Shown piece by piece: positions 13,288 to 32,486 of a DNA stretch of 32,486 nucleotides. A program made the position numbers and the translations under genes. Position 1 is the first letter of the stretch, and every line of letters starts with the position of its first letter. The stretch lies in the sequence record MF630922.1; one strand, given 5' to 3'. The notes below the pieces were generated by a model. It had not been told where the DNA came from and did no database searches. It worked only from the letters and a program-made list of their open reading frames with translations. Source of the DNA: Escherichia phage IMM-001.

Positions 13288-13300
13288 GCATGGGGGTTTT

Positions 13301-15564: not shown

Positions 15565-15571
15565 AAATTAA

Positions 15572-15593
15572 CCCTCTTCGGAGGGTTTTTTAT
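15572..15593 (+). terminator. Rho-independent terminator
   Basis: ccctc-ttcg-gaggg then T6. Confidence 0.75.
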
Positions 15594-15594
15594 T

Positions 15595-15639
15595 GATAGC
15601 ACTTTTTGTTAAAGGCTATTGTGTTGATTGCTGTATAGT
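15595..15639 (+). promoter_or_regulatory. Conserved IR promoter-like cassette copy 5, variant (GATAGCAC-ttt-TTGTTAAA, 22 nt, TATAGT)
   Basis: Motif family; leader tcattcatcgaaacg. Confidence 0.5.
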
Positions 15640-15672
15640 TCATTCATCGAAACGAAATGATAGATTAATGAA

Positions 15673-15924
15673 ATGAACAACGTAAAAAATATCATCAAAC
15701 TTGCTGCTGCTCTTGGTGCTTTCTACCTGGCAATTCAGATTGTCAACCCAACTAGTGGCGCAACAGCAAACTCTGATGCAATAAAGTATGAAACTAAATT
15801 CAATAGCGCATATTCATACTGTGAAAAAGTTGCTGGAGACAAGGTTAATCAGATCATGACTCATGGTCGCGAAGTGTGCACAGAAGTTGCTCACAAAATT
15901 GCAAAAGAAGACGAATCAAAGTAA
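15673..15924 (+). CDS. small secreted or membrane protein (83 aa)
   Basis: N-terminal hydrophobic stretch LAAALGAFYLAIQIV after a Lys-containing n-region; two Cys in mature part. Confidence 0.45.
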   Translation: MNNVKNIIKLAAALGAFYLAIQIVNPTSGATANSDAIKYETKFNSAYSYCEKVAGDKVNQIMTHGREVCTEVAHKIAKEDESK

Positions 15925-15959
15925 TATAATCATTCAACACAAACAAAGGAGATAATGAG

Positions 15960-16274
15960 ATGGCAAAATTTAAACTTTCACTTAAGGCGCTTCCTGACTT
16001 TAAACTTCCAGTTAAGTTTCAGCTGGCTAATGGTGAAGATGCTGAAGTAGTACTAACAGTTAAGCACAAGAAATCATCTGAGTTGCAGGAGATTCTTAAT
16101 CGTGAAAACTTCAGCACTAAAGAATTGATTAGCGAAATCTGCTCTGACTGGGATTTAGAAGAGCCATTTAACGATGAAAACGTAGATGAGTTTGCAAACC
16201 TTTTTCCTGGCGCTGTTCCATCACTGATGGATAGCTACATGAAAGCGCTTGCAGGTCAGCGAGTAAAAAACTAA
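15960..16274 (+). CDS. tail assembly chaperone, lambda G-like (104 aa)
   Basis: Position before tape measure; ends with slippery heptamer. Confidence 0.6.
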   Translation: MAKFKLSLKALPDFKLPVKFQLANGEDAEVVLTVKHKKSSELQEILNRENFSTKELISEICSDWDLEEPFNDENVDEFANLFPGAVPSLMDSYMKALAGQRVKN

Positions 16275-16588
16275 AACGCGCAGTATACCTACAATACCAG
16301 TCGCCGCCAACGGATTCCGAACTTGAAGCTATAGGAATGAAACGTTCCGACTACGAAGGTGAAGAGCCCGAGGAGTTATTCTTCGATGAAACAATGATGC
16401 AAAGCTGGGATGTGTACTGTGCTATGTCAACACAATGGCGAGTAGGAGCTTGCGGCGCCACAGGTCTTGATTACAATTGCCTTCCATTCTTGTTCAAAGT
16501 CTATAAAATAGATGATGAAGAAATGGCACTTAACGATATCAGAATACTTGAGGCTAAAGCCTTAGATATGATGAACGCCAAGAAATAG
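15960..16588 (+). CDS. tail assembly chaperone GT-like fusion via putative -1 frameshift at A_AAA_AAC (16265..16271)
   Basis: The -1 frame is open from 16235 through 16588 and overlaps the end of the G-like ORF; the downstream ORF has no convincing RBS. Confidence 0.5.
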
Positions 16589-16613
16589 CCATCCTTCGGG
16601 GTGGCTTTTTTTA
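16587..16613 (+). terminator. Rho-independent terminator
   Basis: agccatcc-ttcg-gggtggct then T7. Confidence 0.7.
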
Positions 16614-16626
16614 TTATGGAGACAAT

Positions 16627-19599
16627 ATGGCAACTAACGAAATTGCTGGTATCACGCTAGCCGTCGACGTCGCTCAGGTCGATAGAGGTACGCAGTCCTT
16701 ACAGAAATTCAGGCAAGCAAACGAGCAAGCTGCAACAGGCATTAATAGCTTCGTTAATGCTGAACTTGTAGCCAAGACTCAAGCAAGGGATACAGCAAGG
16801 CAGCTTGAGGAGCAGCGAAAATCTTTCGCATCGCTTCAGCAAGTAATCGACCCAACTGCTGCTAAATTCCAGAAGTTGCAGAAAGCGGCAACCGAATTGG
16901 ACAAAGCATTTGAGTCTGGGCTGGTTCCTGATGATGAGTTCTTCAGGCTTGGCTCTGTTATTGAAACTCAAATTAATAAGCTAAACAGGTCCAGGGCTGC
17001 GTTGAGTGAAGAGGGTAGGGCTGCACTCCAAGCTTCAATAGATAAAGAAAAAGCAACAGCAACCGCGCAAAAGTTCATTCAATCCCTTGAGAACGAGGCG
17101 AATGCGGCAACTCTCACAAGGACTGAGCTGCTTCAACTTAAGGCTGCTCAGCTAGGCGTTAGCGACCAAGCGGCACCGATTATCGACAGGATTGGTAAGG
17201 CCGCTGAGGCGTCAGCAGTTCAATTGCAGAAGCAAAGCTCAGCTTTTGTTAAGTCAGGTTTAAGCGCAGGGCAGTACAAGCAAGCAATACGACAGCTCCC
17301 TGCTCAGATTACAGATATCGGAACCTCACTTGCTGGCGGCATCCCAATCTGGCTGATTGCAATTCAGCAAGGCGGTCAGATTAAGGATAGTTTCGGCGGT
17401 ATTGCGAACACGGCAAGGTTTGCACTTGCGGCCATTAATCCATTGACAGCTGTTGTTGGTACTTTGGGGCTGGCTCTTGGTGCTCTTGGTGTTGCAGCTT
17501 ATCAGGCTGATAAGAACACTCGCGGACTAGCATCAACGATAACGCTTGTTGGCAATTCAACTATCACTTCAACGGCACAGATAAATCAGGTTGTTGACGG
17601 GATTGAGAAAACAACATTAGCCACGCGCGGTCTTATTCAGGAAATAGCAAATAGTCTGGTAGCAAACGGTAATCTTACGCTTACGCAGATAGATAAGATA
17701 ACCAAGGCAACAGCGCAGTGGGCGACTGTAACATCAACCGACTCAAAGACTATCCTTGGATACTTTGACCAGATCACAAAGGACCCAATAAAGGGACTTA
17801 CTGACCTTGATAAGCAATTTAACTTTCTTCAGTATGGGCAGTTAAAATATATTGAGAATATCAGGAAGACGGCTGGAGAAACAGAGGCAGTAACCGCAGC
17901 CACTGAACTATTCGCTGAAGTTATGGAAAATAGGCTAGCAGACGTAGCGCTAAGCCTCAACCCTCTTGAAAGCGCGTGGAATAGCTTCAGGAAGTTTGTA
18001 AGTGAGATCTTGGATGACATCAGCAAAAGGACGCTTGGGGCCCTTAACTTAATAACTGACGTTGTTGCTGGTACGATTGAGCAGATAAGGTCACTCATAA
18101 ACTCCGGCGACATTCTCTTGGGTGAGTTTGCTATAGCAGCAACCAAGACGCTTCAGTCAATACCCGGCCTTGGTGATATAGGTAATGAGGCAATTGCTGA
18201 GCAGCAAAAGATTGTTGATGCAGCCAAGAAGCAAAATGAGGAGTTAGCAAAAAGCATATCTGAGCGAGATGCTAGAATCAGGAAGGGTGAGCTTGGCTAT
18301 GTGGAGAGAAATAATAACACTAACCTGAATGGAAATAATGCATCAACTGATAAGGAGTTCGGAGCAAGGAAGAAGGCCCTAGCAGACGAGCTTGATGCCA
18401 TAATGAAGGCTAGAAGGGAGAGGAACAAAGCTGTAAAAGAAGAAAGGGATTTAACCTTATCTTATGAATCTGGCGTTCTTGCACTTCAGGCTCAATTGAA
18501 GGTTTTGCAAGAGCATAGAACGATAAACGATGTAATAAGCAACGAGCGCAAGCAGCTATTTCAGGAAGAGGCTAAGTTTGCAATACTCGAGCAAAGATAT
18601 GCTGATGGTAGCCTAACCAAGTCTCAAGCCAAACTGCTCTCGCAGAAGGATATCATTCTTGAACAGGCTAAACAGAAGGCTGAACTAGGAGATCAGATTG
18701 TTCTTCAAGAGAGGTCAAACAAGTTACTTGATGATAACCTAAAGAAGACTGTTCAGATTACAAATGAGGCAAATAATGTTTCTCTTGCTGCTAATTTATC
18801 TGACAGGGAGAAGCAAAGGGCGAAAGAGCTTCAGGCGCTTCAATCCAATCAGTTAAACAAAGGTGGCTCTGTAGATGACGCTGATTTCCAGGCTTTACTG
18901 GAAGCAAGGCGTAATTTTTATGCTCAAGAGGACGCGCTACGTGAAAACTGGCTAGCCGGTGTGCAGTCATCATTCGCTAATTGGGCAGAGAGCGCGACAG
19001 ATGCATTTTCTATAGCTGGTGAATTGACCACTTCCGTGTTTACCGGAATTACAGAGCAGATTACCAGCCTTGTAACAACTGGCACGGCAGACTTCAGGAG
19101 CTTTACCGTTGAAATCCTGAAACAGATTGCCAAGATTGCAACACAGCTCTTAATTGTTAAGGCGATTGAGTCAAGTTTAAGCAGCTTCGGCGGAACTGGC
19201 GGCGCTATTGGTTCAATTGGTGGCGCGCTTGGCTTTGCTGGCGGTGGATATACTGGTGATGGAGGTAAGTACCAACCTGCCGGAACTGTGCACAAAGGTG
19301 AATTTGTTTTCACCAAAGAAGCAACCAGCAGGATTGGAGTCAAGAACCTGTACAAGCTTATGCGAGGTTATGCAAATGGCGGTGCTGTTGGTGGGCCATC
19401 TGGTTATGCTAATGGTGGTGCTGTCGGCGGTACTAATGTCAGTGTTGGCGGCGTTACTGTTAACGTAAATTCTGGAATCGGTGGCGGCAATGATGCTAAG
19501 GCTATAGAATCTGGAGTTAAGGTTATCGTGGCTGAGGAAATCAGTAAGTCATTCCAGCAGGGCGGCAGGGCGTATCAGTTCTTGCGCGGTTACAACTAA
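16627..19599 (+). CDS. tail tape measure protein (990 aa)
   Basis: Long helical protein with hydrophobic central segments and Gly-rich C-terminus, after chaperone pair. Confidence 0.85.
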
Positions 19600-19630
19600 T
19601 TAATGGGGCTTCTGCCCCTAAGGATTTAAA

Positions 19631-19981
19631 ATGGCATTGCAAACATTCAATTGGTGCTTAAACGTACTCAATGGCGGCTCTTCATTTACCAATGCCAACA
19701 ATATTAGGGTTGTATCATTTGGTAATGGTTACCAACAGCGTGGCACTGGAGGATACAGGACGAACAAGAGGACGTATACTGTTAGCTACGTTGGCCGTGA
19801 GTGGGAGGCAGTAATGAACTTCTGCCTTGATCACATCGTAAAACCTTTCGCATGGACTACGCCACAGGGTGAGTTAAAGATGTTTGTTATTCAGCAGGAT
19901 AGCATTAGCGTCTCGCCGAGCACAAAAGAAGTTCAGACTGTTAGTATGCAATTTACTGAAGTTTTCACTTCAATGAGTTAA
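19631..19981 (+). CDS. minor tail protein, lambda M-like (116 aa)
   Basis: Position and size after tape measure. Confidence 0.55.
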   Translation: MALQTFNWCLNVLNGGSSFTNANNIRVVSFGNGYQQRGTGGYRTNKRTYTVSYVGREWEAVMNFCLDHIVKPFAWTTPQGELKMFVIQQDSISVSPSTKEVQTVSMQFTEVFTSMS

Positions 19982-19985
19982 ACTA

Positions 19986-20009
19986 AGGCCCATAAAGGGC
20001 CTTTTTTTA
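19986..20009 (+). terminator. Rho-independent terminator
   Basis: aggccc-ataaa-gggcct then T7. Confidence 0.7.
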
Positions 20010-20020
20010 TTGGAGAGAAT

Positions 20021-20776
20021 ATGGCAAGTGTAAAGTTTGAAAACCAGCTTCAATCACTATTTCCTGGTGAGGTAGTCACACTTATTGAGGTTGATGGCAG
20101 CAAGTTTGGCGCAAGGGTTTACAGGTTTCATGGAGAGGACATCTCATACACGCCAGAGGAAATCATGCAAGCCCAAACATCTGGTCAGCCACTACCATCC
20201 AAGACAATCACGTTCCGTGGCGAAGAGTATGGAGCCAGGCCTTTCGGCATTAGCGGCATCAACCTGACTTCTGACGGCAAAGCAAACAAGCTCACGCTAA
20301 TTCTATCAAACGTTGACCAGGCTGTTTCCGCACTCATACGTCAGTATAATGGTATGGTTCAGGCCAAGGTGACAATCTGGGTTACTATCAGGGATAATAT
20401 CAATGAGGACGGCAGCATTGCAGATGGCGATTATCGTAAGATGGTTTACTTTATTGAGCGCCCTAAGCAGGTTGACTACAAAACTGCCTCTTTTGAGTTA
20501 TCTAGCCCAATTGATATGGATGGTATTTATATTCCAGCCAGGCTAGTCCAGTCAGTATGCTATTGGGCTTCCCGTGGCTGGTACCGCAGTGGGAATGGTT
20601 GTGCTTATGCTGGTAATCGATATTTTGATAAAGACAATAATCCTGTTGATGACCCTGGCCTAGATTTCTGCGCCGGAACTGTTGACGCCTGTAAGTTAAG
20701 GTTTGGCGAGAATAACCAATTAGATTTTGGCGGTTGTGCCTCAGCAAGTTTGCAAGCTAAGAATAATCAGAACTAA
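20021..20776 (+). CDS. minor tail protein, lambda L-like (251 aa)
   Basis: C-terminal cysteine cluster as in L-family tail-tip proteins. Confidence 0.65.
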   Translation: MASVKFENQLQSLFPGEVVTLIEVDGSKFGARVYRFHGEDISYTPEEIMQAQTSGQPLPSKTITFRGEEYGARPFGISGINLTSDGKANKLTLILSNVDQAVSALIRQYNGMVQAKVTIWVTIRDNINEDGSIADGDYRKMVYFIERPKQVDYKTASFELSSPIDMDGIYIPARLVQSVCYWASRGWYRSGNGCAYAGNRYFDKDNNPVDDPGLDFCAGTVDACKLRFGENNQLDFGGCASASLQAKNNQN

Positions 20777-20786
20777 GGGGAGTAAA

Positions 20787-21533
20787 ATGCTTACACCAAA
20801 AGTTAAACTAGAAATCATGCGTCACGCAAAAGAGGATTTCCCCAACGAATGCTGTGGTGTAGTCACCCAGAAAGGCATGGCTCAGAAGTACCATCGAATC
20901 ACCAACGCGTCTAAAGACACTGAGAATGAGTTCATTCTTGATGCTGGCGAGTACATGAAGATTAGTGATGAAGAACAAGTTGTTTACATTGTTCACTCAC
21001 ATACGGGAGATGGCGCGACTACTCGTCCAAGCCCTGCTGATATCTGTAGCTGCAATGAGTGCGAGATTCCTTACGTGATTGTTAGTTACCCTGAGGGGGA
21101 CATGAGAATTCTCGAGCCTGAAGAAATGCCGCTAGCAGGAAGGCCGTGGGGACTTGGTAGCTTCGACTGCTGGGGCTTGATAATGTCCTTCCACGCAAAA
21201 CACGGCGTAAAACTGACTGACTACCGAGTTAATTATCCATGGTGGAACAAGGAGTACGACGAAAATATCTACGACGACAATTGGATTAAGGAAGGATTTG
21301 AGCTAGTCGAAACTGATGATATTCCTGCTGGCTCCATGATTATGATGCAGATTCAAAGCGAGACAACAAATCACGCAGGAATCTACGTTGGAGATAACAA
21401 GTTCTTGCACCATCTTTACGGTAAGATGAGTAAAGTTGATACCTACAGTGATTACTGGCGAGAGCGCACCGTTCGCATCGTTCGCCACAAAGATTTACCA
21501 GAAGGAGCAAGCTACAATGCAGAGACTGATTAA
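20787..21533 (+). CDS. tail assembly protein, lambda K-like (248 aa), JAB/MPN + NlpC/P60-like
   Basis: HSHTGDGATTRPSPADI matches JAMM H-x-H-x7-S-x2-D; Cys/His in C-terminal half; ATG 20787 with RBS aaggggag. Confidence 0.75.
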   Translation: MLTPKVKLEIMRHAKEDFPNECCGVVTQKGMAQKYHRITNASKDTENEFILDAGEYMKISDEEQVVYIVHSHTGDGATTRPSPADICSCNECEIPYVIVSYPEGDMRILEPEEMPLAGRPWGLGSFDCWGLIMSFHAKHGVKLTDYRVNYPWWNKEYDENIYDDNWIKEGFELVETDDIPAGSMIMMQIQSETTNHAGIYVGDNKFLHHLYGKMSKVDTYSDYWRERTVRIVRHKDLPEGASYNAETD

Positions 21534-22083
21534 AGTTAAATTGGGCCTTTCGCTTGGTAGGAGGTATGGAAAGATTCACGAACTATGTGTCGAGTCTGTA
21601 CCGGAGGCGCTTAGGGCGTTGTCTGTAAACATTCCAGCATTCAAGGAATTCATGCAGAGCCATGTCGGGCAGAATACAAGGTTTGCAATCTTTGCAGATG
21701 GCAAAAACCTAAACGAGCATCGCATCAAAGACTTTAAGGCCGTAAAGGAGATTCGCATCATGCCAATCCCTCAAGGACGAAAGAGTGGTGGGTTGTTCCA
21801 GACTGTTTTGGGTGCGGCGCTAATTACTATTGGTGCATTCACCGGACAGGTTTATCTTGTTGCGGCAGGTGTTTCACTCGCAGCTGGCGGCGTAGCTCAA
21901 TTACTGTCACCTCAAGCAACAGGTCTTAAAAGCCAGGAGTCTGCACAAAACAGGGCTTCTTACGCATTTGGTTCGGCGGTTAACACGGTTGCTGCTGGAT
22001 ACCCGGTATGTCTGCCATACGGTTATCGAAGTGTTGGTGGCTCCGTATTTAGTGCTGGCAGTTACGCTCAGGATATTGCATAA
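21517..22083 (+). CDS. tail assembly protein, lambda I-like (188 aa)
   Basis: Hydrophobic C-terminal half, position between K-like and J-like; ATG 21517 with RBS gaaggag. Confidence 0.55.
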   Translation: MQRLIKVKLGLSLGRRYGKIHELCVESVPEALRALSVNIPAFKEFMQSHVGQNTRFAIFADGKNLNEHRIKDFKAVKEIRIMPIPQGRKSGGLFQTVLGAALITIGAFTGQVYLVAAGVSLAAGGVAQLLSPQATGLKSQESAQNRASYAFGSAVNTVAAGYPVCLPYGYRSVGGSVFSAGSYAQDIA

Positions 22084-22090
22084 ATTAACA

Positions 22091-22112
22091 CCCGCCTAGT
22101 GCGGGTTTTTTA
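22091..22112 (+). terminator. Rho-independent terminator
   Basis: cccgc-ctagt-gcggg then T6. Confidence 0.7.
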
Positions 22113-22162
22113 TTTGATGTACAATGGCACCAATAGTCAAAAACAAAACAGGATAATGTGAT

Positions 22163-25100
22163 ATGGCGCAGGACATTAAAATATACGGCAGCAAGGGCGG
22201 TAGTTCTAAGCAGAAACAACCAGTAGAGCAGCCAGATAACTTGATATCTGTAAACAAGGTTAAGGTTTTGCTAGCTGTTTCTGATGGTGAAGTTGATAAC
22301 TCGTTCTCGCTTAAAGACCTGTATCTTGCTGACGTTCCGGTTCAGAACCAGAATGGCACATACAACTACGAGGGTGTGACAGCAGAATTTCGCCCTGGCA
22401 CGCAGAGTCAGGATTACATCGCCGGCCTCGAGGGTGCCAGCTCTGAGGTGCAGGTCAATAGGGAGATTACAAACTCAACGCCTTACATAATTGCCGTTAA
22501 CAACACTCAACTATCTGCGATTAGGGTTAAATTATACTGGCCTCGACTGATTAATCAGGAAAGTAACGGAGACCTGAACGGAACAACTTGCGAGTACGCT
22601 ATTGACTTATCTGTTGATGGCTCCACGTACAGTGAGTACACGCGAGGCGTAGCTAACGGCAAGACGACTAGCGGGTACGACAGGAGTATCAGGGTAAACC
22701 TTCCAGCTGAGTTTTCTAGCGCTCTTGTTAGGGTCCGTAAAATTACAGCAGACTCAGAAAGCTCTACTCTGGTTAACGGAATGCAAATTACGACCTATCA
22801 GGAAGTAATCGATGCTAAATTCCGTTATCCGCTTACAGCGCTGGTTTACGTTGAGTTTAGTTCGGACCTCTTCCCTAACGGAATCCCGGCCATCTCAATC
22901 AAAAAGAAGTGGAAGTTGATTCGCGTTCCGACTAACTATAACCCAGAGACAAGAACTTATAGCGGAACTTGGAACGGCACATTTAAGATGGCGTATTCAA
23001 ATAACCCAGCGTGGGTTCTTTACGACCTTGTAACTAACCAGCGATATGGGCTTGACCAACGCGAACTTGGTATCACAATTGATAAATGGGGGTTGTATGA
23101 AGCGGCGCAATTCTGTGACCAAATGGTACCAGACGGAAAGGGAGGTGTGGAGCCGCGTTACTTGTGTGATGTTGTAATTCAGCAAAAGGTTGAGGCATAC
23201 CAAGTCATCCGTGATATCTGTTCTATCTTCCGTGGGCTAACATTCTATGATGGTGAGCAGATAGGGATTGTTGTCGATAAGCCGCGCCAACCATCATACG
23301 TATTCACCAACGATAACGTTGTTGACGGGTTATTTAACAGGACTTTCGGAAGCGACAAATCGCTATACACAGTCGCTAACGTTCAGTTTGATGATGTTGA
23401 AAACTCATACCAGCAAGATGTAGAGCCAGTATTTGAGCTAGAGGCAACAAGGCGTTTTGGTTACAACCCGGTTGACCTTACCGCTATTGGCTGTACTCGC
23501 AGGAGTGAAGCAAACCGCCGTGGTCGTTGGTTGTTAAAGACAAACTTGCGCAGCGAGACGATAAGTTTCACCACAGGGCTAGAAGGTATGATCCCAATGA
23601 TTGGTGAGGTGATTGCGGTTAATGACCAGGCATGGTCTAGCAACTACACCTTAAACCTTTCTGGTCGTATCGAGTCTGTAAGTGGTTTGCAGGTTTTCGT
23701 GCCGTTTAAGATTGATGCTGCTGCCGGCGACAGGATTCTGATTAACAAGCCTGACGGAATGCCGGAATACAGGACTATTGCATCTGTATCTGAAGATGGA
23801 ATGACGCTGCAACTTAACACGGCGTTTAGCTTCAACCCTCAACCTGATACTGTATTTGCGATTGATAAGGAGAATCTTGCGCTTCAGCAATATGTTGTGA
23901 CCGGGATTCAAAAAGCAGACAGCGATGGAGATGATGCGTTCGGTTACAGTATTACAGCGGTTGAGTACGACCCGAACAAATACGACGAGATTGATTACGG
24001 CGTAAACATTCAGGACAGGCCAACGTCAATCGTTGAGCCAGATACATTACTGGCACCTGAGAATGTTCAGGTAAGCAGCTACAGTAAGGTTGTGCAGGGT
24101 ATTTCAGTTGAGACTATGGTCATCACCTGGGATAAGGTTCAGTACGCTAAGACATACACAGTTCAGTGGCGTAAGGAGAATGGAAACTGGATTAATGTAC
24201 CGCGCACTGCAAACACAGAAGTTGATATTGAAGGTATTTACGCAGGCATTTATCAGGTTCGTGTAAGGGCTGTTTCTGATACTGAAAACGTATCTGCGTG
24301 GTCTGAAATTGTTTCAGCTAGCCTTACAGGTAAGATTGGAACTCCTTCTGCACCTACAGTTATTACGGCTTCAGATGACGAGGTGTTTGGCATTATGGTT
24401 AAGTGGGGATTCCCTGACAACTCAACTGATACGTCATACACTGAATTGCAGCAAGTTGCCGACAATGGTGATGGCACTTACACGCCAGAGAACGCAAGCT
24501 TGCTAACATTAGTTCCTTACCCGAGCTACGAGTATTGGCACACTACGCTACCGGCAGGTAAGGTTATCTGGTACAGGGCGCGACTAATCGACAAGATTGG
24601 TAACGTCTCACCATGGACTGATTTTGTAATGGGCATGGCAAGCGATGACGTTTCGGCAATCATTGGTGAAATTAAGGTTGATATAGAGAACTCGGAGGGG
24701 TTCAAGTATCTTCAGCAGAATGCCATTGAGTCAAACGGAGCTATTCAGGCGCAAGCAGAATCAATCATCGAGAACACCCTGGCGAATGATGGTGACGTTC
24801 GTCGAATGACTAAGGAAAACAGCAAGAGGAAGGCTGAATTTATTCAGGCAGTCAATCTTATCGCTGATGAAGAAAGGGCTCGCGTAGAGGCCCTGACTCA
24901 GCTTAAGGCACAGATTGATGATGAGATTGTAGCTTCGTTAACAAGGATTGATACTGCGCTAGCTGAGGAAACTCAAGCAAGGACCACTGCGGACACTGCT
25001 TTATCCGCAAGGCTTGGCGAGAATGAAGCTGCATTAAATGAGAAGCTTGACACATACGTTACCGCTGATTCAATTGGCGCTCAGTATGGAATTAAGCTCG

Positions 25101-25549
25101 GTCTTACTTACAATGGAGTTCAGTACAGTTCTGGGATGAGCATGGAGCTAACAGGTTCTGATGGTAATGTTCGTAGCCAGGTCATCTTTGACGCTAACAG
25201 GTTCGCGATCAGTAATGGTGTTAGTTCCGGTTCCGGTCAGTGGTCATTGCCTTTCGTAGTTGAGAATAATCAGGTCTTCATTCAGAGCGCAGTAATTCAG
25301 GACGGTTCAATCACTAACGCGAAGATTGGTAACAGGATTCAATCTAACAACTACGTGGCTGGATCTCAAGGATGGGCGATTGACAAGGCAGGTAGCGCCG
25401 AGTTTAGTAACGCAACTGTAAGGGGGAATTTATACGCAAATAACGGTAACTTTGCATTTAACGGAACAAACAACACTGTACAGATTAACAACAACGGAAT
25501 TACAGTTAATTTACCGAATGGTGGCAGGGTTGTAGTTGGAGTGTGGTAA
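22163..25549 (+). CDS. central tail fibre / host specificity protein, lambda J-like (1128 aa)
   Basis: Size and position after I-like gene; long multi-domain protein. Confidence 0.8.
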   Translation: MAQDIKIYGSKGGSSKQKQPVEQPDNLISVNKVKVLLAVSDGEVDNSFSLKDLYLADVPVQNQNGTYNYEGVTAEFRPGTQSQDYIAGLEGASSEVQVNREITNSTPYIIAVNNTQLSAIRVKLYWPRLINQESNGDLNGTTCEYAIDLSVDGSTYSEYTRGVANGKTTSGYDRSIRVNLPAEFSSALVRVRKITADSESSTLVNGMQITTYQEVIDAKFRYPLTALVYVEFSSDLFPNGIPAISIKKKWKLIRVPTNYNPETRTYSGTWNGTFKMAYSNNPAWVLYDLVTNQRYGLDQRELGITIDKWGLYEAAQFCDQMVPDGKGGVEPRYLCDVVIQQKVEAYQVIRDICSIFRGLTFYDGEQIGIVVDKPRQPSYVFTNDNVVDGLFNRTFGSDKSLYTVANVQFDDVENSYQQDVEPVFELEATRRFGYNPVDLTAIGCTRRSEANRRGRWLLKTNLRSETISFTTGLEGMIPMIGEVIAVNDQAWSSNYTLNLSGRIESVSGLQVFVPFKIDAAAGDRILINKPDGMPEYRTIASVSEDGMTLQLNTAFSFNPQPDTVFAIDKENLALQQYVVTGIQKADSDGDDAFGYSITAVEYDPNKYDEIDYGVNIQDRPTSIVEPDTLLAPENVQVSSYSKVVQGISVETMVITWDKVQYAKTYTVQWRKENGNWINVPRTANTEVDIEGIYAGIYQVRVRAVSDTENVSAWSEIVSASLTGKIGTPSAPTVITASDDEVFGIMVKWGFPDNSTDTSYTELQQVADNGDGTYTPENASLLTLVPYPSYEYWHTTLPAGKVIWYRARLIDKIGNVSPWTDFVMGMASDDVSAIIGEIKVDIENSEGFKYLQQNAIESNGAIQAQAESIIENTLANDGDVRRMTKENSKRKAEFIQAVNLIADEERARVEALTQLKAQIDDEIVASLTRIDTALAEETQARTTADTALSARLGENEAALNEKLDTYVTADSIGAQYGIKLGLTYNGVQYSSGMSMELTGSDGNVRSQVIFDANRFAISNGVSSGSGQWSLPFVVENNQVFIQSAVIQDGSITNAKIGNRIQSNNYVAGSQGWAIDKAGSAEFSNATVRGNLYANNGNFAFNGTNNTVQINNNGITVNLPNGGRVVVGVW

Positions 25550-25553
25550 ATGA

Positions 25554-25579
25554 TTAGGCCCCTTTTGGGGCCTTTTCTT
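25554..25579. terminator. Bidirectional rho-independent terminator between convergent genes
   Basis: aggcccc-tttt-ggggcct with T-runs readable on both strands. Confidence 0.7.
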
Positions 25580-26542
25580 TTAGTAGAAGTTTGGGATAAA
25601 TGGCAGAGCCATTGATATGTTTGTGTCGAATGGGAACTGCGCCCCAGTCTGTGTTGAATAGTTCCCTATTACAGTTCCAGGTACAGCCATTACGGCGCCT
25701 CCAGACATACAGACACCCTTGTACCTTAAGTTGTTATACCCACCAGTAACCCTTGTTGTAGCTCCACACCTGAGTAGTGGAAAGAACCCCCCATTTATTG
25801 ACTGGAAACCATTGGTTATTTGTATAAAACCACTAAGAACGAAAGGTCTCCTGACGCTTGAGAAGACAATCTGACCAGAACTGTTAGACATTGTAAGGCC
25901 GTGGCCAGCTATTGGAGGCTCATTTCTGAATATCACTAATTGGACGTAAGTGCTTGCTGCCACGTCATCTATGCCGCCGTAATTTATATCGCGACACCAT
26001 ATTGTACTCCCGTCACTCTCGAGAGAGACGTTTGGGTTATCCCATTTACCAAACGGGATTCCGCTAACTGGAAGTGAAGCCGCGCCGTTAACCTGAATCC
26101 CACCAACCCATGCCGCCGACATTAACCTAGAATTGCTTGATATTGCCAAAAAGTCAGTTGAGTTCTCAACCAGTATGCCAGGGCTTGACGACGATGAAGC
26201 ATCAAGTATCTCAAAGCAATTACCAGCGAAGTCAATAATTCGACCTCTGGCACCATTAAAGTTACTAAGCGTTATCCTGCCAACTCCGTCATTTACCTTC
26301 TGAAACCCGTTAATATAATAAACTTCAGGTACAACATCATAGGCGTCAACGTGGACGGCCTTTGTTGGCAAGCAGAATGCGGTAGAGCCTGGTGACATGG
26401 TTAAACCAAAGTCCCATGATGATGCTGGCGTCGAAAGTCCATTAGTATTTATTGATCCAGTCACAGCAGGTGCTCTTAGTCCAGCGGTAATCTCCATCGC
26501 TGGCCTTCCGTCATTTAGGTCAATCAATATACCTTGCGGCAT
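25580..26542 (-). CDS. putative receptor-binding protein / tail fibre (320 aa)
   Basis: Minus-strand gene after J-like gene, TAATG-coupled to the upstream lipoprotein gene; ATG 26542 has AAGGAG 8 nt upstream (ORF-track GTG 26551 sits inside that RBS). Confidence 0.4.
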   Translation of the reverse strand: MPQGILIDLNDGRPAMEITAGLRAPAVTGSINTNGLSTPASSWDFGLTMSPGSTAFCLPTKAVHVDAYDVVPEVYYINGFQKVNDGVGRITLSNFNGARGRIIDFAGNCFEILDASSSSSPGILVENSTDFLAISSNSRLMSAAWVGGIQVNGAASLPVSGIPFGKWDNPNVSLESDGSTIWCRDINYGGIDDVAASTYVQLVIFRNEPPIAGHGLTMSNSSGQIVFSSVRRPFVLSGFIQITNGFQSINGGFFPLLRCGATTRVTGGYNNLRYKGVCMSGGAVMAVPGTVIGNYSTQTGAQFPFDTNISMALPFIPNFY

Positions 26543-26787
26543 TATTTCCACTCCTTAGATCCGTGGTCAGCAACTGAACCACCGTAACCGCCGCCAACCT
26601 TGCTCTCAATACCAGCGTAGCGCACATCAACTTCACCAGCCGGTACAACTACACCATTTTTCCATTTAGCAACGCACACGCCGTTTGCTTGCGTTGCACA
26701 CCAACCGTCAGGACGAGGAGCAGATGAACAACCTACCATCATGATTGCTGCTGCGGCGATGATTGAAAGTTTGATTAAGTTAGTCAT
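26542..26787 (-). CDS. small lipoprotein (81 aa), candidate superinfection-exclusion factor
   Basis: Signal peptide [20 protein letters not shown] with lipobox-like MVGC; RBS aagga. Confidence 0.65.
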
Positions 26788-26828
26788 TTACGTATTCCTT
26801 ATGAGGTTCGTTTCTTTTCGATGGAGTA

Positions 26829-26870
26829 ACTATATCTCATTCTTGAGATTTGTCTTTAGCTATTCGTGCT
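26829..26870 (-). promoter_or_regulatory. Conserved IR promoter-like cassette copy 8, variant (AGCACGAATAGCTAAAG, 22 nt, TATAGT), overlapping the MTase stop
   Basis: Motif family on minus strand upstream of the lipoprotein gene. Confidence 0.5.
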
Positions 26871-27578
26871 GTTTATTCTATTTTTTGCGACATTAAAATA
26901 CTCAGTATCTAGCTCTATACCTATAAATGACCTGTTTGTGTTTACGCATGCTACGCCAGTTGTTCCGCTACCCATGCAGTTATCAAGAACTAAGTCACCC
27001 TCGTCAGTGTATGTTTTTATTAGGTACTCCATCAAGGAAACCGGCTTTTGCGTTGGGTGTAGTGATGATTTCTGCTTGTCGCTAGCCATCTTTATCACAT
27101 CCCTTGGGTATCTCATTGTTGAATCATAAGATAGTGATTCGAAATTCTGATCTCCATAGTTTGTTCCATTGTCGTTCCTCTTTGTTGCTGTTTTTCTTTT
27201 GTGACCCTCTGTCATTTGCGGGTTGTATTTGTAAGGTTTTTTGTAGAAAACAAGTATGTTTTCATGAGCCTTCATCGGAGCTCTCTTGGCATTAAGGTGT
27301 CCGGTTGCATGTGTTTTTTCCCATATCCACTCATGCTTCAACATTTCAAGATTGGAGCACCCGAGTACTTTATCGAATGGTGTTTGCGCCGTAAGTACAA
27401 TTGCACCCTTGCACACCCTCCTGTATTGAGTCCATAGCAAGTCAAGGTCTATAACTGAATCCCACTTGTTTCTGGTTGTTCCGTATGGTAAGTCGCACAA
27501 AATCATGTCAATTGAATTGTCTGGGATTTCTTTCATAAGCTCAAGGCAGTCGCCATTCATTAATTTAATCATTTCCAT
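26856..27578 (-). CDS. orphan DNA methyltransferase, beta-class, DPPY motif (240 aa; may start at second ATG 27572)
   Basis: Motif IV ILCDLPYG near N-terminus and motif I VLDNCMGSGTTG near C-terminus; no adjacent restriction enzyme gene. Confidence 0.8.
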   Translation of the reverse strand: MEMIKLMNGDCLELMKEIPDNSIDMILCDLPYGTTRNKWDSVIDLDLLWTQYRRVCKGAIVLTAQTPFDKVLGCSNLEMLKHEWIWEKTHATGHLNAKRAPMKAHENILVFYKKPYKYNPQMTEGHKRKTATKRNDNGTNYGDQNFESLSYDSTMRYPRDVIKMASDKQKSSLHPTQKPVSLMEYLIKTYTDEGDLVLDNCMGSGTTGVACVNTNRSFIGIELDTEYFNVAKNRINSTNS

Positions 27579-27603
27579 CTCTCATTGCGTTTTTGTTGTG
27601 ATG

Positions 27604-27646
27604 ATTATACATAACCAAGCAAGGGTGTCTTTAGCTATTCGTGCTA
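27604..27646 (-). promoter_or_regulatory. Conserved IR promoter-like cassette copy 9, variant (TAGCACGAATAGCTAAAG, 22 nt, TATAAT)
   Basis: Motif family on minus strand upstream of the MTase gene. Confidence 0.55.
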
Positions 27647-27745
27647 CTGGTTACGCGTAACCGATGTAAATCGATGTATACCATATGCATCCGCTGGAAA
27701 TCGTATACGCATTGTTACGCCTAGTTACGCCATAGTTACATTAAA

Positions 27746-27806
27746 ATATCTATATATATCAACCTTTTACTCTTATTATTATTATTATATATATTACTGT
27801 GTATAT
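27746..27806 (+). repeat. AT-rich repeat, copy B, containing (TTA)5 microsatellite at 27773..27787
   Basis: Shares core with 229..297; lies in the 535-bp ORF-free region between divergent blocks. Confidence 0.8.
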
Positions 27807-28113
27807 CATGTAACCACTGTTCTGGAGTGTTCCGGCTATAATTTTTATATCATGTGATTTTATACAGTATTTCGCGGCACATATACCAATGCACCACCCG
27901 CTAAAATCGGTATACACGGTATACGCATTATTTACATTGAGCTATAGCGGCCCAGCCGGAGCAGTTAAGCGTAACTAATGCCAATGTCTACACGTAATTA
28001 CAAAATTATACGCGTATACTTGATTAATTAATCGGGGATACCAATTAGACGTGGTGACAAGCGTTCTGCATAATTATCACATCGAAAGCAAACAACCATA
28101 GAGAGATAGAGAA

Positions 28114-28308
28114 ATGCCATACTTCATCATTAAAGAGAAAAAAAACGCACTGTTCGGAGATTGCTACTTCGGCGGTGAGGCTGGATATACAATTCACAAA
28201 TCTGAAGCGGACCGATTCGATACCAAGGAAGAGGCCAAGTCTATTCTGACTGGATATTTCACTGAGGAAGATTTGAAAGCTGTTAAGATTGTTAAAATTA
28301 AGGATTGA
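28114..28308 (+). CDS. hypothetical small protein (64 aa)
   Basis: First ORF of rightward block; RBS agagag. Confidence 0.45.
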   Translation: MPYFIIKEKKNALFGDCYFGGEAGYTIHKSEADRFDTKEEAKSILTGYFTEEDLKAVKIVKIKD

Positions 28309-28311
28309 ACC

Positions 28312-29283
28312 ATGACATTTACCGTATACACCAACGACGAACTAACAAACGAATCCTATCACGAAGAGCAGAGCCACATCTCTGGCTCTTCACTGGCTGA
28401 GATTCTCGCCACTTCACCAGCAAAATGGAAATTCAAGCAGCGCGATAACTCAAGCGCAGCACTTAAGTTTGGCACTCTAAGTCACTGCATGATGCTTGAG
28501 CGTGAGGCGTTCGATTCAACCTACATGCGAGCCACTGACTTTGATGAAGTTGAGGGGTTAATCACAAGCCAAACCGCGTTATCGGCAGCACTTAAGAAAG
28601 TTGGAGTTTCTGGTACGTCAGGAAAAGGCTATAACGAGCTAGTAGAGATGATGTACAAGTGCGGTGAGGATTGGCCTGTTAAGTGGCTAATTGAACAGCA
28701 GGAGAGCGCTGAGGCGTTAATTAGTGGCAAGGAGTTGGTTAGTGCGAAAGATTACGATAAGGTAATCGCAATGCGCGAGGTTCTGACCAATATCCCAGCT
28801 TACGATGCAGTTATTAATTCACCAACAGCGCAGAAAGAGCTATCAATCTTTGGTGAGATTCTTGGATGCGGCGTTAAGGTTAGACTTGACCATGTGGATG
28901 TTGTTGATGGCGCGGTTTACATTACTGACTACAAAACCACAGCAGACGCAAGTCCTCGAGGATTTGGTAAGTCGGCTTATGACCATGGATACCTTTGCAA
29001 GATGGCACTCCAGCGCGATTTGTTTGTTAAGGCGTTTAGCGAGAAGCGTAAGGTTGTAGTTCGTCTTCTGGCGCAGGAGAAGACAGAGCCTTATTTGCCA
29101 ATGTGCTACACGCTCACAGATGAGCAGCTTCACATTGGTCGCCTTCAATATATGGAAGCACTTGCCACGTACAAGCAGTGTAAGGAACTTGATGTTTGGC
29201 CTGGATACAGTAATGGGATTACAGAGCAAGATTTAATGATTCCTGAATGGGTAGCAAAACAATACGGAGAGATATTAAAATGA
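28312..29283 (+). CDS. PD-(D/E)xK family nuclease, RecB-like domain (323 aa); likely recombination exonuclease
   Basis: VRLDHVDVVD and YITDYKTT resemble nuclease motifs II and III (hhD / D-Y-K); sits upstream of Erf. Confidence 0.6.
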   Translation: MTFTVYTNDELTNESYHEEQSHISGSSLAEILATSPAKWKFKQRDNSSAALKFGTLSHCMMLEREAFDSTYMRATDFDEVEGLITSQTALSAALKKVGVSGTSGKGYNELVEMMYKCGEDWPVKWLIEQQESAEALISGKELVSAKDYDKVIAMREVLTNIPAYDAVINSPTAQKELSIFGEILGCGVKVRLDHVDVVDGAVYITDYKTTADASPRGFGKSAYDHGYLCKMALQRDLFVKAFSEKRKVVVRLLAQEKTEPYLPMCYTLTDEQLHIGRLQYMEALATYKQCKELDVWPGYSNGITEQDLMIPEWVAKQYGEILK

Positions 29284-29744
29284 ATAAAGATTGCTGGCAG
29301 ACACCATTAGAATTATTTAATCAACTAAATGATAAGTACAATTTCCAGGTTGACGCGTGCGCAAGTCAAGAGAATGCTTTGTGTGAGCATTTTTGGACCG
29401 AAGATGATGACTGTTTGCAGCAGGATTGGGGTGATGAAAATGATTTTGTTTGGTGCAACCCACCATACAGCAACCCATTGCCATTTGTCGAAAAGTGCCA
29501 GGAGTACGGTTACGCTGTTATGCTTTTAAATCAGGACACATCAACGAAATGGGCTAAGATAGTTTTTGAAAAATCCTCAAAGGTAATACTGTTATCAGAT
29601 AGGGTTAGGTTTATAAACCCATCGACGCTCGAGATTGGGAAGTCAAACCCAAAATGCCAGATGATTGTAGTGTTCGATAATAGTGTGGAGCATGGGCCTG
29701 TCATAAGGTGGTGCTCAATAAAAGATATTCACAAAAACATCTAA
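29280..29744 (+). CDS. Dam-like phage N6-adenine DNA methyltransferase (154 aa)
   Basis: N-terminal CWQTP and catalytic NPPY motifs; ATG 29280 overlaps upstream stop. Confidence 0.7.
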   Translation: MNKDCWQTPLELFNQLNDKYNFQVDACASQENALCEHFWTEDDDCLQQDWGDENDFVWCNPPYSNPLPFVEKCQEYGYAVMLLNQDTSTKWAKIVFEKSSKVILLSDRVRFINPSTLEIGKSNPKCQMIVVFDNSVEHGPVIRWCSIKDIHKNI

Positions 29745-29788
29745 ATAGCACTAATTGCTAAAGATAAAATTAACAGGTGTGGTATGAT
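29744..29788 (+). promoter_or_regulatory. Conserved IR promoter-like cassette copy 6 (AATAGCAC-taa-TTGCTAAA, 22 nt, TATGAT), overlapping the Dam-like stop
   Basis: Motif family; leader accacatcaacaacgagatgg. Confidence 0.55.
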
Positions 29789-29819
29789 TACCACATCAAC
29801 AACGAGATGGTTTAAGCAA

Positions 29820-29963
29820 ATGAAAGTATTTAAAAGTAAAATATGTAGCTACATTAAAATGGCCATTAATCGAAACGATGATATTATAAAAACAATAGAT
29901 ATAAAACCTGGCGACGAGGTTTTTGTCATAATCGAAAAGTCTATAGCGTTAGAACTTGCATAA
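29820..29963 (+). CDS. hypothetical small protein (47 aa, below threshold)
   Basis: ATG downstream of cassette copy 6; the in-frame upstream ATG 29784 lies in the promoter-like element. Confidence 0.3.
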   Translation: MKVFKSKICSYIKMAINRNDDIIKTIDIKPGDEVFVIIEKSIALELA

Positions 29964-30000
29964 TACATCTTAAAAAATTCAGAAAAACTAGAGGATTGAT

Positions 30001-30651
30001 ATGAACATTTCAGAATCATGCAAATCAATTTTAAACGCACTGCACACTGCTAAATCGCTATTTGCGAAGGCTGAGAAGTCAAAGCAAAACTCGCACTTAA
30101 AGAACAAGTACGCCACTTTAGAAGACGTTTTAGCAGCAGTTGAGCCAGGATTGGATGAGTGCGGTTTGGTAATGTTCCAAAGCGTAATAGATGATGAATC
30201 AACGAACCGAATAAAGGTTGAAACTAAGCTGTTTCATGCAGAATCTGGAGAATGGGTTAGCTTCTTAATGATTGTCCCAATCAGTAAGCAAGATGCTCAA
30301 GGTTACGGCTCTGCTCTTACATATGCTCGACGCTATGGCATTACAGCAGCCTTAGGGCTTAGCCAGGCTGATGATGATGGTAATCTTGCAGCTAAGGGTG
30401 TTAAAGACTTCAAGCGAGAACTTGAGAAGTGCAATACGCTCGATGAGCTTCGTAATGTCTGGAAGGAGGCTAAACAGTCACTTGATGCGGCAGGATGGAA
30501 GGTTTTCGAACCACACATTATCGAGCGCAAGGCAGAGATTCAGGCAAATGAAATGAATGGCTTCAACCCAGCCACGCCTAAGAAAGTTGCAGAAAAAAGT
30601 AGTGATAAAGAAAAGATTGAAGTAGAATCACAACAAATCGATACATTCTAA
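30001..30651 (+). CDS. erf: Erf-family single-strand annealing protein (216 aa)
   Basis: GSALTYARRYGITAALG hallmark and NSHLKNKYATLEDVL N-terminal motif; RBS gagga. Confidence 0.75.
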   Translation: MNISESCKSILNALHTAKSLFAKAEKSKQNSHLKNKYATLEDVLAAVEPGLDECGLVMFQSVIDDESTNRIKVETKLFHAESGEWVSFLMIVPISKQDAQGYGSALTYARRYGITAALGLSQADDDGNLAAKGVKDFKRELEKCNTLDELRNVWKEAKQSLDAAGWKVFEPHIIERKAEIQANEMNGFNPATPKKVAEKSSDKEKIEVESQQIDTF

Positions 30652-30693
30652 ATTAAACGGGGCTTCGGCCCCAGCAAACAGAGAGATAAAAAC

Positions 30694-31131
30694 ATGCACG
30701 TAATTACTGGTCAGATTCGCCGCGCTCCATTCACTAAAGAAGGTCAGAATGCTAATGGTACCTGGAAAATGTTTGCGGTTGATTTGAGTGAGCGATACAA
30801 AGATAAAGATGGTCAGACTCAGTATAGTAACTATCGCGCAGTCTTCTTCGCGAAAGAGTCAATTTTAGATTGGTATAATGAAGCATTTCAAGAAGGTAAA
30901 ATTGTTAGCGTTAGCGCTGAAAGTTTATCTGTAGATGTTCGAGATAAAGATGGCAAGACTTACGTAACAATCAATATGAATAATCCTCGACTTGAGTTTA
31001 GTCAGCGTGGAGATTCGCAACCACAACAAAATCAGAGACAGCAGCAGCAACAACAGCAGCAGAATAATCAGCAGAAGAGGCAACCACAACCACAACAACA
31101 GCAGCAGTTTGACGACTCCATTCCATTCTGA
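30694..31131 (+). CDS. ssb: single-stranded DNA-binding protein-like (145 aa) with poly-Gln linker and acidic tip
   Basis: C-terminal FDDSIPF resembles the SSB DDDIPF tail; preceded by a Gln-rich linker; N-terminal domain not canonical. Confidence 0.55.
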   Translation: MHVITGQIRRAPFTKEGQNANGTWKMFAVDLSERYKDKDGQTQYSNYRAVFFAKESILDWYNEAFQEGKIVSVSAESLSVDVRDKDGKTYVTINMNNPRLEFSQRGDSQPQQNQRQQQQQQQQNNQQKRQPQPQQQQQFDDSIPF

Positions 31132-31140
31132 TAAAAGATA

Positions 31141-31163
31141 AGGCCCCTTTCGGGGCCTTTTTA
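31141..31163. terminator. Bidirectional rho-independent terminator
   Basis: aggcccc-tttc-ggggcct then T5; convergent genes on both sides. Confidence 0.7.
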
Positions 31164-31691
31164 TGGCATGTTTACTCGAATTGAAACGAACGAGTCAGAA
31201 GGTATATCTATAGGGTCTCCGTTACTGAAGCCGTCAATTTTATTTCTCGCGAAAGACGGAGATGAATCGTGAGTGCGATGATAAGTTTTAACAACTATTG
31301 AACCATCAGCTTCAACCTCGTAATCTAGCCATATTCTAGGCTGCTTATTCAAGTCTACAGGTACCTCAAATCCACCGTTAACACCGCCCCAAGAAGTGTC
31401 AGAATTTAGGCCAAGCACACCTGATACCTTATAAACACCAGTAGAAACCCTCTCCACTGAAGCTCCTTCTGATTCCTCGTTTGTTTCAAAACTCCCATCT
31501 CGGAATACCTTAATTATAGGTGAGGCCACTTTGACGAAACCGCTAGGGTCCACTGTTGTGTTTAATCCGTGTAAAAGTTCCATTACCGCAAGTCCGCCAT
31601 TATAAGTTGAGTTAGCTATATAACAACGCCTTGCCCCATAAGATATGGCAAGCTGACCCCACTCGCGTGGAGTTGGGCCAGGCATATCCAT
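31161..31691 (-). CDS. tail-fibre-like protein, C-terminal part (176 aa from first ATG); frame stays open upstream to 31970 with no start codon
   Basis: Upstream in-frame translation ...NLQNKLQARSNLGLGTSATINHGDDAGQ... looks fibre-like; no ATG/GTG/TTG in 93 upstream codons. Confidence 0.4.
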   Translation of the reverse strand: MDMPGPTPREWGQLAISYGARRCYIANSTYNGGLAVMELLHGLNTTVDPSGFVKVASPIIKVFRDGSFETNEESEGASVERVSTGVYKVSGVLGLNSDTSWGGVNGGFEVPVDLNKQPRIWLDYEVEADGSIVVKTYHRTHDSSPSFARNKIDGFSNGDPIDIPSDSFVSIRVNMP

Positions 31692-32011
31692 GAATACAAC
31701 AGAATCTTTGTGTAAGTTAAAACCGGAACCGTAAGGCTCATATCCATAAGACCATGTTTTTGTTGTCCTATTCGCTGAAAGAAACCTTGGTCCATAAACT
31801 AGCTGGACCTGCCCTGCATCGTCTCCATGATTAATAGTCGCAGAGGTTCCAAGTCCAAGATTGGACCTTGCTTGTAGCTTGTTTTGTAAGTCATTCAGGT
31901 TTTCTTCTTTTTTTAAAAAACTTGATGGATTTACTGAATTAGCGTAATCTGCCGCTTGCTGCGCTGATGCTCAGGGAGCAATCCTTCTTCAGTTGCTCAA
32001 GCGCTTCGCCT

Positions 32012-32179
32012 TTAATCTTCATTTTTAAACCACCTTTCTTTAAGAACCTGAGCCCAAGACTTTGCATCATCTTCTGTCATGAAGAAACTTAATTTTGGGT
32101 ACTTGTGAAACCCCTTTAACTCAACAACCCAATGACCATTATTGTGACTGTAAGAAACTGTTTTTTCTTTCATTATTAC
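32012..32179 (-). CDS. hypothetical small protein (about 55 aa from internal ATG)
   Basis: ORF-track entry starts at a GTG inside structured leader; internal ATG has gagag upstream. Confidence 0.35.
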   Translation of the reverse strand, partial: VIMKEKTVSYSHNNGHWVVELKGFHKYPKLSFFMTEDDAKSWAQVLKERWFKNED

Positions 32180-32385
32180 CATCTCTCTATATTTGCTTGT
32201 TATCGAAATCTCTTCAACGTACTCGCTACAACTCGGGATTTTAAACCCGGCCCGGCATCCTGGCAAAAGGACCCGCAAGGCGCTTTGGTGGGTTAGGTAA
32301 CGCTTCCTCACATTGCGCGGTGTCGTTCACTCTTTTTGGTTCCTTTCGGAAGTGACTCAGAGTCCAGCACCGTTTCGATGAATAC

Positions 32386-32431
32386 ATAGTAGCAACTTAC
32401 TCATGATTGAGCATTAGCAAAAAGTGCTATT
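32386..32431 (-). promoter_or_regulatory. Conserved IR promoter-like cassette copy 7 (AATAGCAC-ttt-TTGCTAA, 23 nt, TACTAT)
   Basis: Reverse complement of 32414..32431 equals copy 4 motif; leader gtattcatcgaaacg. Confidence 0.5.
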
Positions 32432-32486
32432 CGTTGGATTTATTGATTGTTGCAGCTATTGCAATGATTCACATGACTATTGCACA

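Follow-up and report, generated by a model that had tools for sequence, protein, structure and literature searches.

The genome record of Escherichia phage IMM-001 (MF630922.1) consists of 32,486 nucleotides of DNA, and this whole stretch is referred to as the window throughout. The window represents a T1-like siphovirus of the Drexlerviridae, and its nearest record is that of Escherichia phage TR2 (Christensenvirus), with about 85% identity over positions 8000-31013. Close to its right end the minus strand carries a long open reading frame (ORF) that encodes tail fibre sequence and has no start codon at its 5' end. It is preceded by a short ORF of 27 codons in a different frame. The following features have been identified at this locus.

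31140..31159: GC-rich hairpin AAGGCCCC GAAA GGGGCCTT, located where the ssb and fibre genes converge
31161..31970, minus strand: 3' remnant of a lateral tail fibre gene, 269 codons and a stop, corresponding to residues 185-453 of an intact homologue of 453 amino acids (aa), P0001
31161..31691, minus strand: 176-aa ORF from the first in-frame ATG, holding the whole C-terminal domain PF25670 (31164-31562)
31908..31920, minus strand: T6A7 run, read in frame as (S)FLKK(E)
31939..32022, minus strand: chimeric ORF of 27 codons, comprising 17 early-gene codons, 10 out-of-frame fibre codons (SISAASGRLR) and TAA
31970..31971: novel joint of two genes, located by alignment A5 and by the end points of blastn matches
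31972..32022, minus strand: first 17 codons, MKIKGEALEQLKKDCSL, of a Drexlerviridae early gene with its own ribosome-binding site (AGGTGG, 7-nt spacer)
32012..32173, minus strand: 53-aa early ORF (MKEKTVSY...WFKNED), the first gene of the leftward early operon

A TGA at 31973-31971 on the minus strand is followed in the fibre frame by 269 sense codons and a stop at 31163-31161. The first ATG, GTG or TTG in this frame is the ATG at 31691, and the 93 codons that lie 5' of it are free of starts. A run of this length has a probability of P=0.047 under the window's own codon usage, which is only mildly unusual, and the identical stretch is also start-free in two intact homologues, where it is internal to the gene. 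The start-free run is therefore unremarkable. The ATG at 32022 stands 3' of the AGGTGG with a 7-nt spacer and opens the 27-codon ORF MKIKGEALEQLKKDCSLSISAASGRLR, which is closed by a TAA at 31941-31939. Relative to this ORF the fibre lies in the +1 frame, and any shift between the two would be confined to their overlap of 29 nt at 31942-31970. The initial annotation had described this geometry, namely the frame open from 31970 to 31161 with its 93 start-free codons before Met-31691, the properly coupled 27-codon ORF at 32022..31939, the +1 relation with its shift range of 31942..31970, and the T6A7 run at 31908..31920, and all of these have been recovered in the sequence.

The translation of the 269 codons matches the Pfam family PF25670 (Phage_tail_C_2) with an E-value of 2.9e-58 over aa 137-269, covering positions 1-132 of the 133 in the profile, and the PHROG family phrog_1591 (tail fiber protein) with an E-value of 6e-81 over aa 27-269. 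The fibre-like character that had been read from the translation is borne out by these assignments, and the C-terminal receptor-binding region of a functional Drexlerviridae lateral fibre, represented by PF25670, is present. The proteins found to be homologous to the 269 fibre codons include the following.

P0001, 453 aa, encoded in the sewage metagenome contig L008: 91% identity over 259 residues
P0002, 439 aa: 71% identity
P0003, 453 aa: 71% identity
GP32 of phage phiA2-1, 362 aa: 75% identity

The initial annotation had proposed an alignment to intact homologues as a check. This alignment (A4) places the first fibre codon of the window at residue 185 of P0001, which reads ...SSYKDAAA|ASAQQAADYANSVNPSSFLKKEEN at this point, and the window's frame makes up the last 60% of a fibre gene. 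The Logan contig SRR25011036_5350, which shares 99.3% identity with the window over a length of 12 kb, has a fibre frame that stays open for 18 codons past the window's TGA and reads DAAASSASSASSYKDAAA|ASAQQ across the window's fibre start. The homologous fibres are single ORFs of 362-534 aa, and P0001-P0003, GP32 and a 498-aa protein of TR2 all start with a conserved N-terminal domain, MAIYD.GTASL...GLAQDVAETLR.YQS (A4). The lateral fibres of Drexlerviridae are conserved at their far N-terminus only, and attachment to the virion is probably effected there (Maffei et al. 2021, PMC8594841). This anchor domain has been found neither in the ORF (A4) nor, by tblastx, anywhere in the window. About 184 N-terminal codons, with the virion anchor and most of the Ala/Ser-rich shaft, are gone from the remnant, whose 5' end has neither a start codon nor a ribosome-binding site of its own. 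We infer that the remnant is non-functional.

The lateral fibres of this family, such as the TR2 'lateral tail protein' (UXQ90362), phiA2-1 GP32, SA32RD_28 and the metagenomic P0001, share a position convergent with ssb and a common terminator. They also have in common with the window remnant the PF25670 C-terminus and a linker, ASAQ.AADYA...NLGLGTSA. Unlike them, the remnant lacks the N-terminal anchor of about 100 aa (MAIYD.GTASL...LR.YQS), the shaft and a start codon of its own, and the locus lacks the primase gene that is normally found upstream of the fibre. The hairpin at 31140..31159 is likely to be a bidirectional terminator, and the equivalent site in phage SA32RD carries a terminator annotation. 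The fibre genes of the relatives (L010 11971-12023, L008 2120-2230) contain two copies of a 42-nt tandem repeat, KDAAASSASSASSY, which sits just upstream of the point where the window's remnant starts.

The presence of a complete PF25670 domain within the 176-aa ORF raises the idea that this ORF is expressed from the ATG at 31691 as a free receptor-binding or knob domain with a function of its own. The ORF lies 3' of a promoter-proximal early operon and 5' of a terminator, and 7 of the 8 substitutions that separate the window fibre from that of the Logan relative are non-synonymous, the remaining one being synonymous. These substitutions are divided between both lineages, a spread that is typical of receptor-binding domains, and they are too few to show decay. 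No Shine-Dalgarno sequence can be recognised before the ATG at 31691 (the sequence directly 5' of it is GTTGTATTC), Met-31691 is an internal residue in the intact homologues (A4) and no comparable short stand-alone gene occurs at this position in the relatives. A separate role for this domain is considered very unlikely.

The 27-codon ORF has an ancestry of a different kind. Its first 17 codons, MKIKGEALEQLKKDCSL, represent the N-terminus of a conserved Drexlerviridae early protein of 58-65 aa, known as GP58 in phiA2-1 and UXQ90337 in TR2. GP58, when read from an internal ATG, is a protein of 61 aa running from MKLKGEALEQLKQECSLIGLNHDYTDMVLRG to CCDGLGCYECLPW, and UXQ90337 is alike. The full-length GP58-like gene has been found in 99 phage records, and its homologues in the database number 42, with lengths of 43-63 aa that fall within 58-63 aa in every case except one. 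In alignment A3 the window follows this family through L17 and then diverges from the nearly invariant IGLN, which in the homologues opens the nearly invariant segment IGLN.DYTDMVLRG...CCDGLGC.EC. A short blastn query has assigned window positions 32025-31971 to the start of phiA2-1 GP58 and positions 31970-31941 to the TR2 fibre gene, and the two matches abut without overlap.

What the window has in common with the GP58/UXQ90337 family (C-terminal CC..G.GC.EC) is thus codons 1-17, the ribosome-binding site and the place directly after the first leftward early gene. Unlike the family members, its ORF is cut after residue 17, and the cysteine-rich C-terminal two thirds are gone. In Veterinaerplatzvirus the GP58-like gene is immediately preceded by a homologue of the 53-aa ORF, and in the window the 53-aa ORF has its stop within the region around the ATG of the 27-codon ORF. 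The good coupling of this ATG is explained by the neighbour order of the early genes, which is as in Veterinaerplatzvirus. The 53-aa ORF has been called at 53 aa on the Logan contig as well, and a 99-aa ORF with a GTG start in the program-made ORF list is probably the same gene. The exact left parent was not found in viral_contigs or metagenome_contigs, the nearest sequences being the Logan contig L013 and the GP58 family. With 17 codons from an unrelated early gene, the 27-codon ORF does not represent the start of the fibre.

The change from one ancestry to the other takes place at 31971|31970 (A5). The left-parent homologues (L013, phiA2-1 and TR2) read ...CTGA|TTGG, with codon 17 of the GP58-like gene continuing as ...ATTGGxxTxAAC in its wild-type context. 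The right-parent homologues (the Logan contig and L008) read ...GCAGCA|GCATCAGCG, the wild-type fibre boundary being ...TATAARGATGCCGCAGCA|GCATCAGCG. The window reads ...TGCTCCCTGA|GCATCAGCG, that is, ...CCCTGA before the bar. In blastn comparisons the DNA homology to the Logan contig and to L008 ends at 31971, and altogether the homology to three right-parent and four left-parent sequences ends at this one base pair. The A at 31971 is compatible with an origin in either parent and represents a microhomology of 1 nt. The two flanks are collinear with distant parts of the relatives and have a common end point, as in a deletion joint. In TR2 the two sites that are joined in the window are 13,349 nt apart. 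We consider it nearly certain that the apparent disruption of the 5' end is a joint between two unrelated genes, whether it reflects a real deletion or an artefact. The 10 extra codons and the stop that follow in the small ORF are a coincidence of the +1 phase and not a sign of recoding.

In an earlier MAFFT alignment (A1) the window appeared to have an insertion of 28 nt relative to the TR2 fibre gene, which was discarded as a chance alignment after the GP58-like homology had been seen. The joint also creates a 5-bp inverted repeat, TGCTC-CCT-GAGCA, at 31968-31980 on the minus strand, which is probably due to chance.

These alignments bear on two other explanations that had been put forward for the locus. 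According to one of them, ribosomes undergo a programmed +1 shift from the 27-codon ORF into the fibre frame, and a functional fibre is made. The well-placed ATG with its ribosome-binding site and the 29-nt overlap of the frames would suit such an event, but none of codons 18-27 permits +1 re-pairing in the P-site, since none keeps 2 of 3 bases, and the overlap has neither a stimulatory Shine-Dalgarno sequence nor a hungry-stop context. The homologous fibres are all single ORFs, so that the two-frame layout is not conserved, the upstream ORF derives from a gene family that is not related to the fibres (A3), and the fusion product would still be without the anchor domain (A4). On these comparative grounds (re-pairing codons, homologues and the different ancestry of the two frames, A5) a programmed shift has been rejected as extremely improbable.

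The other explanation invokes a single-base indel, either a sequencing error or a real change, at the T6A7 run or some other short run, in a fibre gene that would otherwise be complete. The two frames do differ by one base, and a homopolymer pair of 13 nt lies close by. This run lies 3' of the stop of the small ORF, and it is base-for-base the same and in frame in two intact homologues, L008 and the Logan contig, where the translations over it are PSSFLKKEEN (P0001) and QSSFLKKEEN (Logan). The change of frame maps to 31971|31970 and not to the homopolymer, and removal of a base could not restore the roughly 184 N-terminal codons, which are absent from the window. An indel of this kind is refuted by alignments A3-A5 and has hardly any probability left. 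The third option considered in the initial annotation, that of a pseudogenised fibre, comes nearest to what has been observed at the locus, although the gene has not suffered a small disruption of frame: it is fused to another gene and has lost its N-terminal part.

The joint between the GP58-like gene and the fibre gene has a counterpart at the level of the whole window, which forms the following unit.

1..32486: closed unit in which position 32486 runs into position 1, the ends being contiguous in three independent relatives

The two ends of the window are contiguous in phage vB_Ec-G8 (24533/24534), in TR2 (3599/3598) and, with 100% identity, in the Logan contig L011 (483/484), and they do not overlap each other. 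The window therefore constitutes a single closed unit of 32,486 bp. In the relatives (TR2, phiA2-1, SA32RD and vB_Ec-G8) the genes for an exonuclease, an Erf-type recombinase and ssb lie on one strand, and on the opposite strand a lateral tail fibre, a primase and further genes converge on ssb. The window likewise has ssb (30694-31131) followed by the fibre-like frame, but no primase gene upstream of this frame. What is found there is the 53-aa ORF and non-coding DNA, which match a part of related genomes that is normally located elsewhere (vB_Ec-G8 24113-24533).

The counterpart of TR2 3778-17126 (13,349 nt) is missing from the window. In TR2 this region comprises the remainder of the GP58-like gene, another five small ORFs, and genes for a DUF3987 protein, a spanin, a lysozyme, a holin and an ATPase, followed by those for a polynucleotide kinase, a nuclease, a helicase, a regulator, an HNH protein and a primase and by the 5' half of the fibre gene. 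Searches with blastn and tblastx have revealed no counterpart of these genes elsewhere in the window; in a tblastx comparison of TR2 3301-17300 with the window only the joint region and an HNH gene were matched. A PHROG scan of ten unassigned ORFs of the window gave no lysis or replication function. Contig L013 has the normal order, in which the missing module follows the GP58-like gene.

The window encodes the terminase, portal, capsid, tail, gpJ, Exo, Erf and SSB proteins, and no primase, helicases, holin, lysozyme (endolysin) or spanin has been found in it. It is thus a closed genome that keeps its packaging and virion genes and has lost those of replication and lysis, which is the composition of a defective-interfering-like genome. 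The parent is a T1-like genome of the Drexlerviridae that is Braunvirinae-like. Its expected size of about 45.8 kb is consistent with the range of 43-52 kb for genomes of this family (PMC8594841), so that the loss of the module fits.

The same joint between the two genes could also have been produced in library preparation or assembly, by a chimeric fragment or by a spurious cycle in the graph of mixed strains. The real phage would then have an intact genome of about 45 kb and an intact fibre of about 453 aa. Several observations favour such an origin and weigh against a deletion in the DNA. The arc of the Logan contig SRR25011036_5350 (identity of 99.3-100%) differs little from that of the window. 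One end of this contig falls 33 nt short of the joint (L011 position 1 equals window position 32004) and the other (L010 12023) falls 54 nt past it, inside the 42-nt tandem repeat, and these closely placed points could be break points of the assembly graph and not biological ones. A mosaic boundary is seen at the start of the GP58-like gene (A5), and graphs of short reads branch at such places. A genome that has neither replication nor lysis genes cannot be a free-living phage. The joint has been found in none of the collections searched: no match was obtained in viral_contigs, metagenome_contigs and genome_contigs with the 30-mer GAAGGATTGCTCCCTGAGCATCAGCGCAGC that spans it or with exact words of 30-36 nt taken from the joint and from either flank, and by exact-protein look-ups no contig on record encodes the 176-aa or the 43-aa ORF. 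The microhomology at the joint has moreover been judged on GP58-like homologues that are 48-59% identical to the window's chimeric ORF and match about 12 of its first 17 residues.

Other features of the joint speak for a deletion. The parents share 1 nt only at this point, which offers no common k-mer to a de Bruijn or overlap assembler. The joint is internal and does not coincide with the ends of the sequence, and junction-spanning k-mers must therefore have been present in the reads. There is also no terminal overlap that would be suggestive of a forced circularisation. The fibre-side end of the Logan contig is explained by the 42-nt tandem repeat, and its other end may be explained by the mosaic boundary found where the GP58-like gene starts. 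On balance the deletion is probably present in the DNA that was sequenced, though we hold this with reservation, and an origin of the joint in library preparation or assembly is a possibility of a more tentative kind.

A deletion of this kind could have arisen as follows. In the relatives the leftward early operon begins with one or two small genes, including the GP58-like gene of about 61 aa, and continues with early, replication and lysis genes over about 13 kb, the block being closed by the primase and the lateral fibre converging on ssb. Illegitimate recombination at a microhomology of 1 nt would have placed codon 185 of the fibre directly behind codon 17 of the GP58-like gene, with the fibre part landing in the +1 frame. 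The outcome seen in the window is a chimeric ORF of 27 codons, with the ribosome-binding site and ATG of the early gene and a stop after 10 out-of-frame codons; a start-less fibre remnant of 269 codons without the virion-attachment domain; and a circle of 32.5 kb that holds packaging, virion and recombination genes and is devoid of primase, helicases, holin, endolysin and spanin.

A transcript from the leftward early promoter region would be expected to run through the 53-aa ORF, the 27-codon ORF and the fibre remnant and to end at the hairpin 31159-31140. As the remnant is start-less and Met-31691 has no Shine-Dalgarno sequence, little or no product would be expected from it, and any such product would be unable to attach to the tail. 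Packaging in T1 takes place by a headful mechanism. The deleted genome could accordingly be encapsidated as about 1.4-1.5 unit lengths, and it would presumably propagate only with a co-infecting intact helper that supplies the primase, helicase and lysis functions.

It is conceivable on this basis that the circle is a real, propagating, helper-dependent 'mini-T1', a defective-interfering-like derivative of a virulent Drexlerviridae phage, which keeps pac/terminase, all virion genes and the Exo/Erf/SSB module and borrows replication and lysis. We regard this as unlikely. If it were true, the nearly coincident ends of the Logan contig would point to a recurrent loss of the same 13-kb module. The window resembles the defective interfering genomes of other viruses in that packaging and structural functions are kept and those of replication and lysis are gone. 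A search of the literature for deletion or defective-interfering variants of T1-like phages has yielded nothing relevant.

The stf gene of phage lambda PaPa is likewise a dispensable siphovirus side-fibre gene that is broken and read as two ORFs in different frames. Hendrix and Duda are said to have reported in 1992 that it was inactivated by a frameshift in the laboratory strain. In stf a single-base change splits an otherwise complete gene, whereas in the window two unrelated genes are fused by a deletion of about 13 kb and half of the fibre is lost. A closer parallel in form is the T4 rII deletion r1589, which fuses rIIA and rIIB (PMC8594841). The end points of that deletion lie inside two genes and give rise to a chimeric frame, as in the window, where the fusion is out of frame. 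The event in the window is a truncation of a gene at a deletion joint, which is of an ordinary kind, and no new mechanism is involved.

Neither 'frameshifted' nor 'recoded' tail fibre is accordingly a suitable annotation for the locus, which holds what is left of a gene at a deletion joint. The contig is not to be counted as a complete viable phage genome in spite of its circle closure, a case in which the equation of circular with complete is misleading. If the deletion is real in the DNA, the window would represent a natural defective T1-like genome that headful packaging could still encapsidate, and it would have some relevance to phage population biology and to the quality control of viromes.

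A number of further features have been observed in the window. Its similarity to the Logan contig is mosaic, amounting to 94.5-96.6% in the region of small early ORFs (1-4400) and to 99.3-99.7% in the structural and recombination region (4419-31971), with 100% identity over 32004-32486. Positions 32174-32486 and 1-574 together form a stretch of about 890 nt without a convincing ORF between divergent early operons, and it is 73-80% conserved with vB_Ec-G8. This stretch probably holds the divergent early promoters and possibly pac. A gene for tRNA-Arg(CCT) is located at 4427-4502 on the plus strand, in the group of small early ORFs that precedes the terminase genes, and is found in the same place in TR2.

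The SSB protein (30694-31131, plus strand) has a long Gln/Asn-rich tract, QQNQRQQQQQQQQNNQQKRQPQPQQQQQ, before its acidic tail DDSIPF. Two genes for HNH endonucleases have been identified on the plus strand, one at 2746-3111 among the early ORFs and the other at 12508-12981, just 3' of the major capsid gene (11491-12432) and before the head-completion and tail genes. The latter has a tblastx match to the HNH genes of TR2, and both are likely to be insertions of homing endonucleases. Two DNA methyltransferases are also encoded, one of the N6_N4_Mtase type at 26856-27578 on the minus strand near the cor/DUF6453 genes and one of the Dam type at 29247-29744 on the plus strand after the exonuclease. 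A pair of small plus-strand ORFs, 15960-16274 and 16337-16588, lies 5' of the gene for the 990-aa tape-measure protein in the position of tail assembly chaperones, and the corresponding annotations in TR2 are 'tail assembly chaperone' and 'TfmS'.

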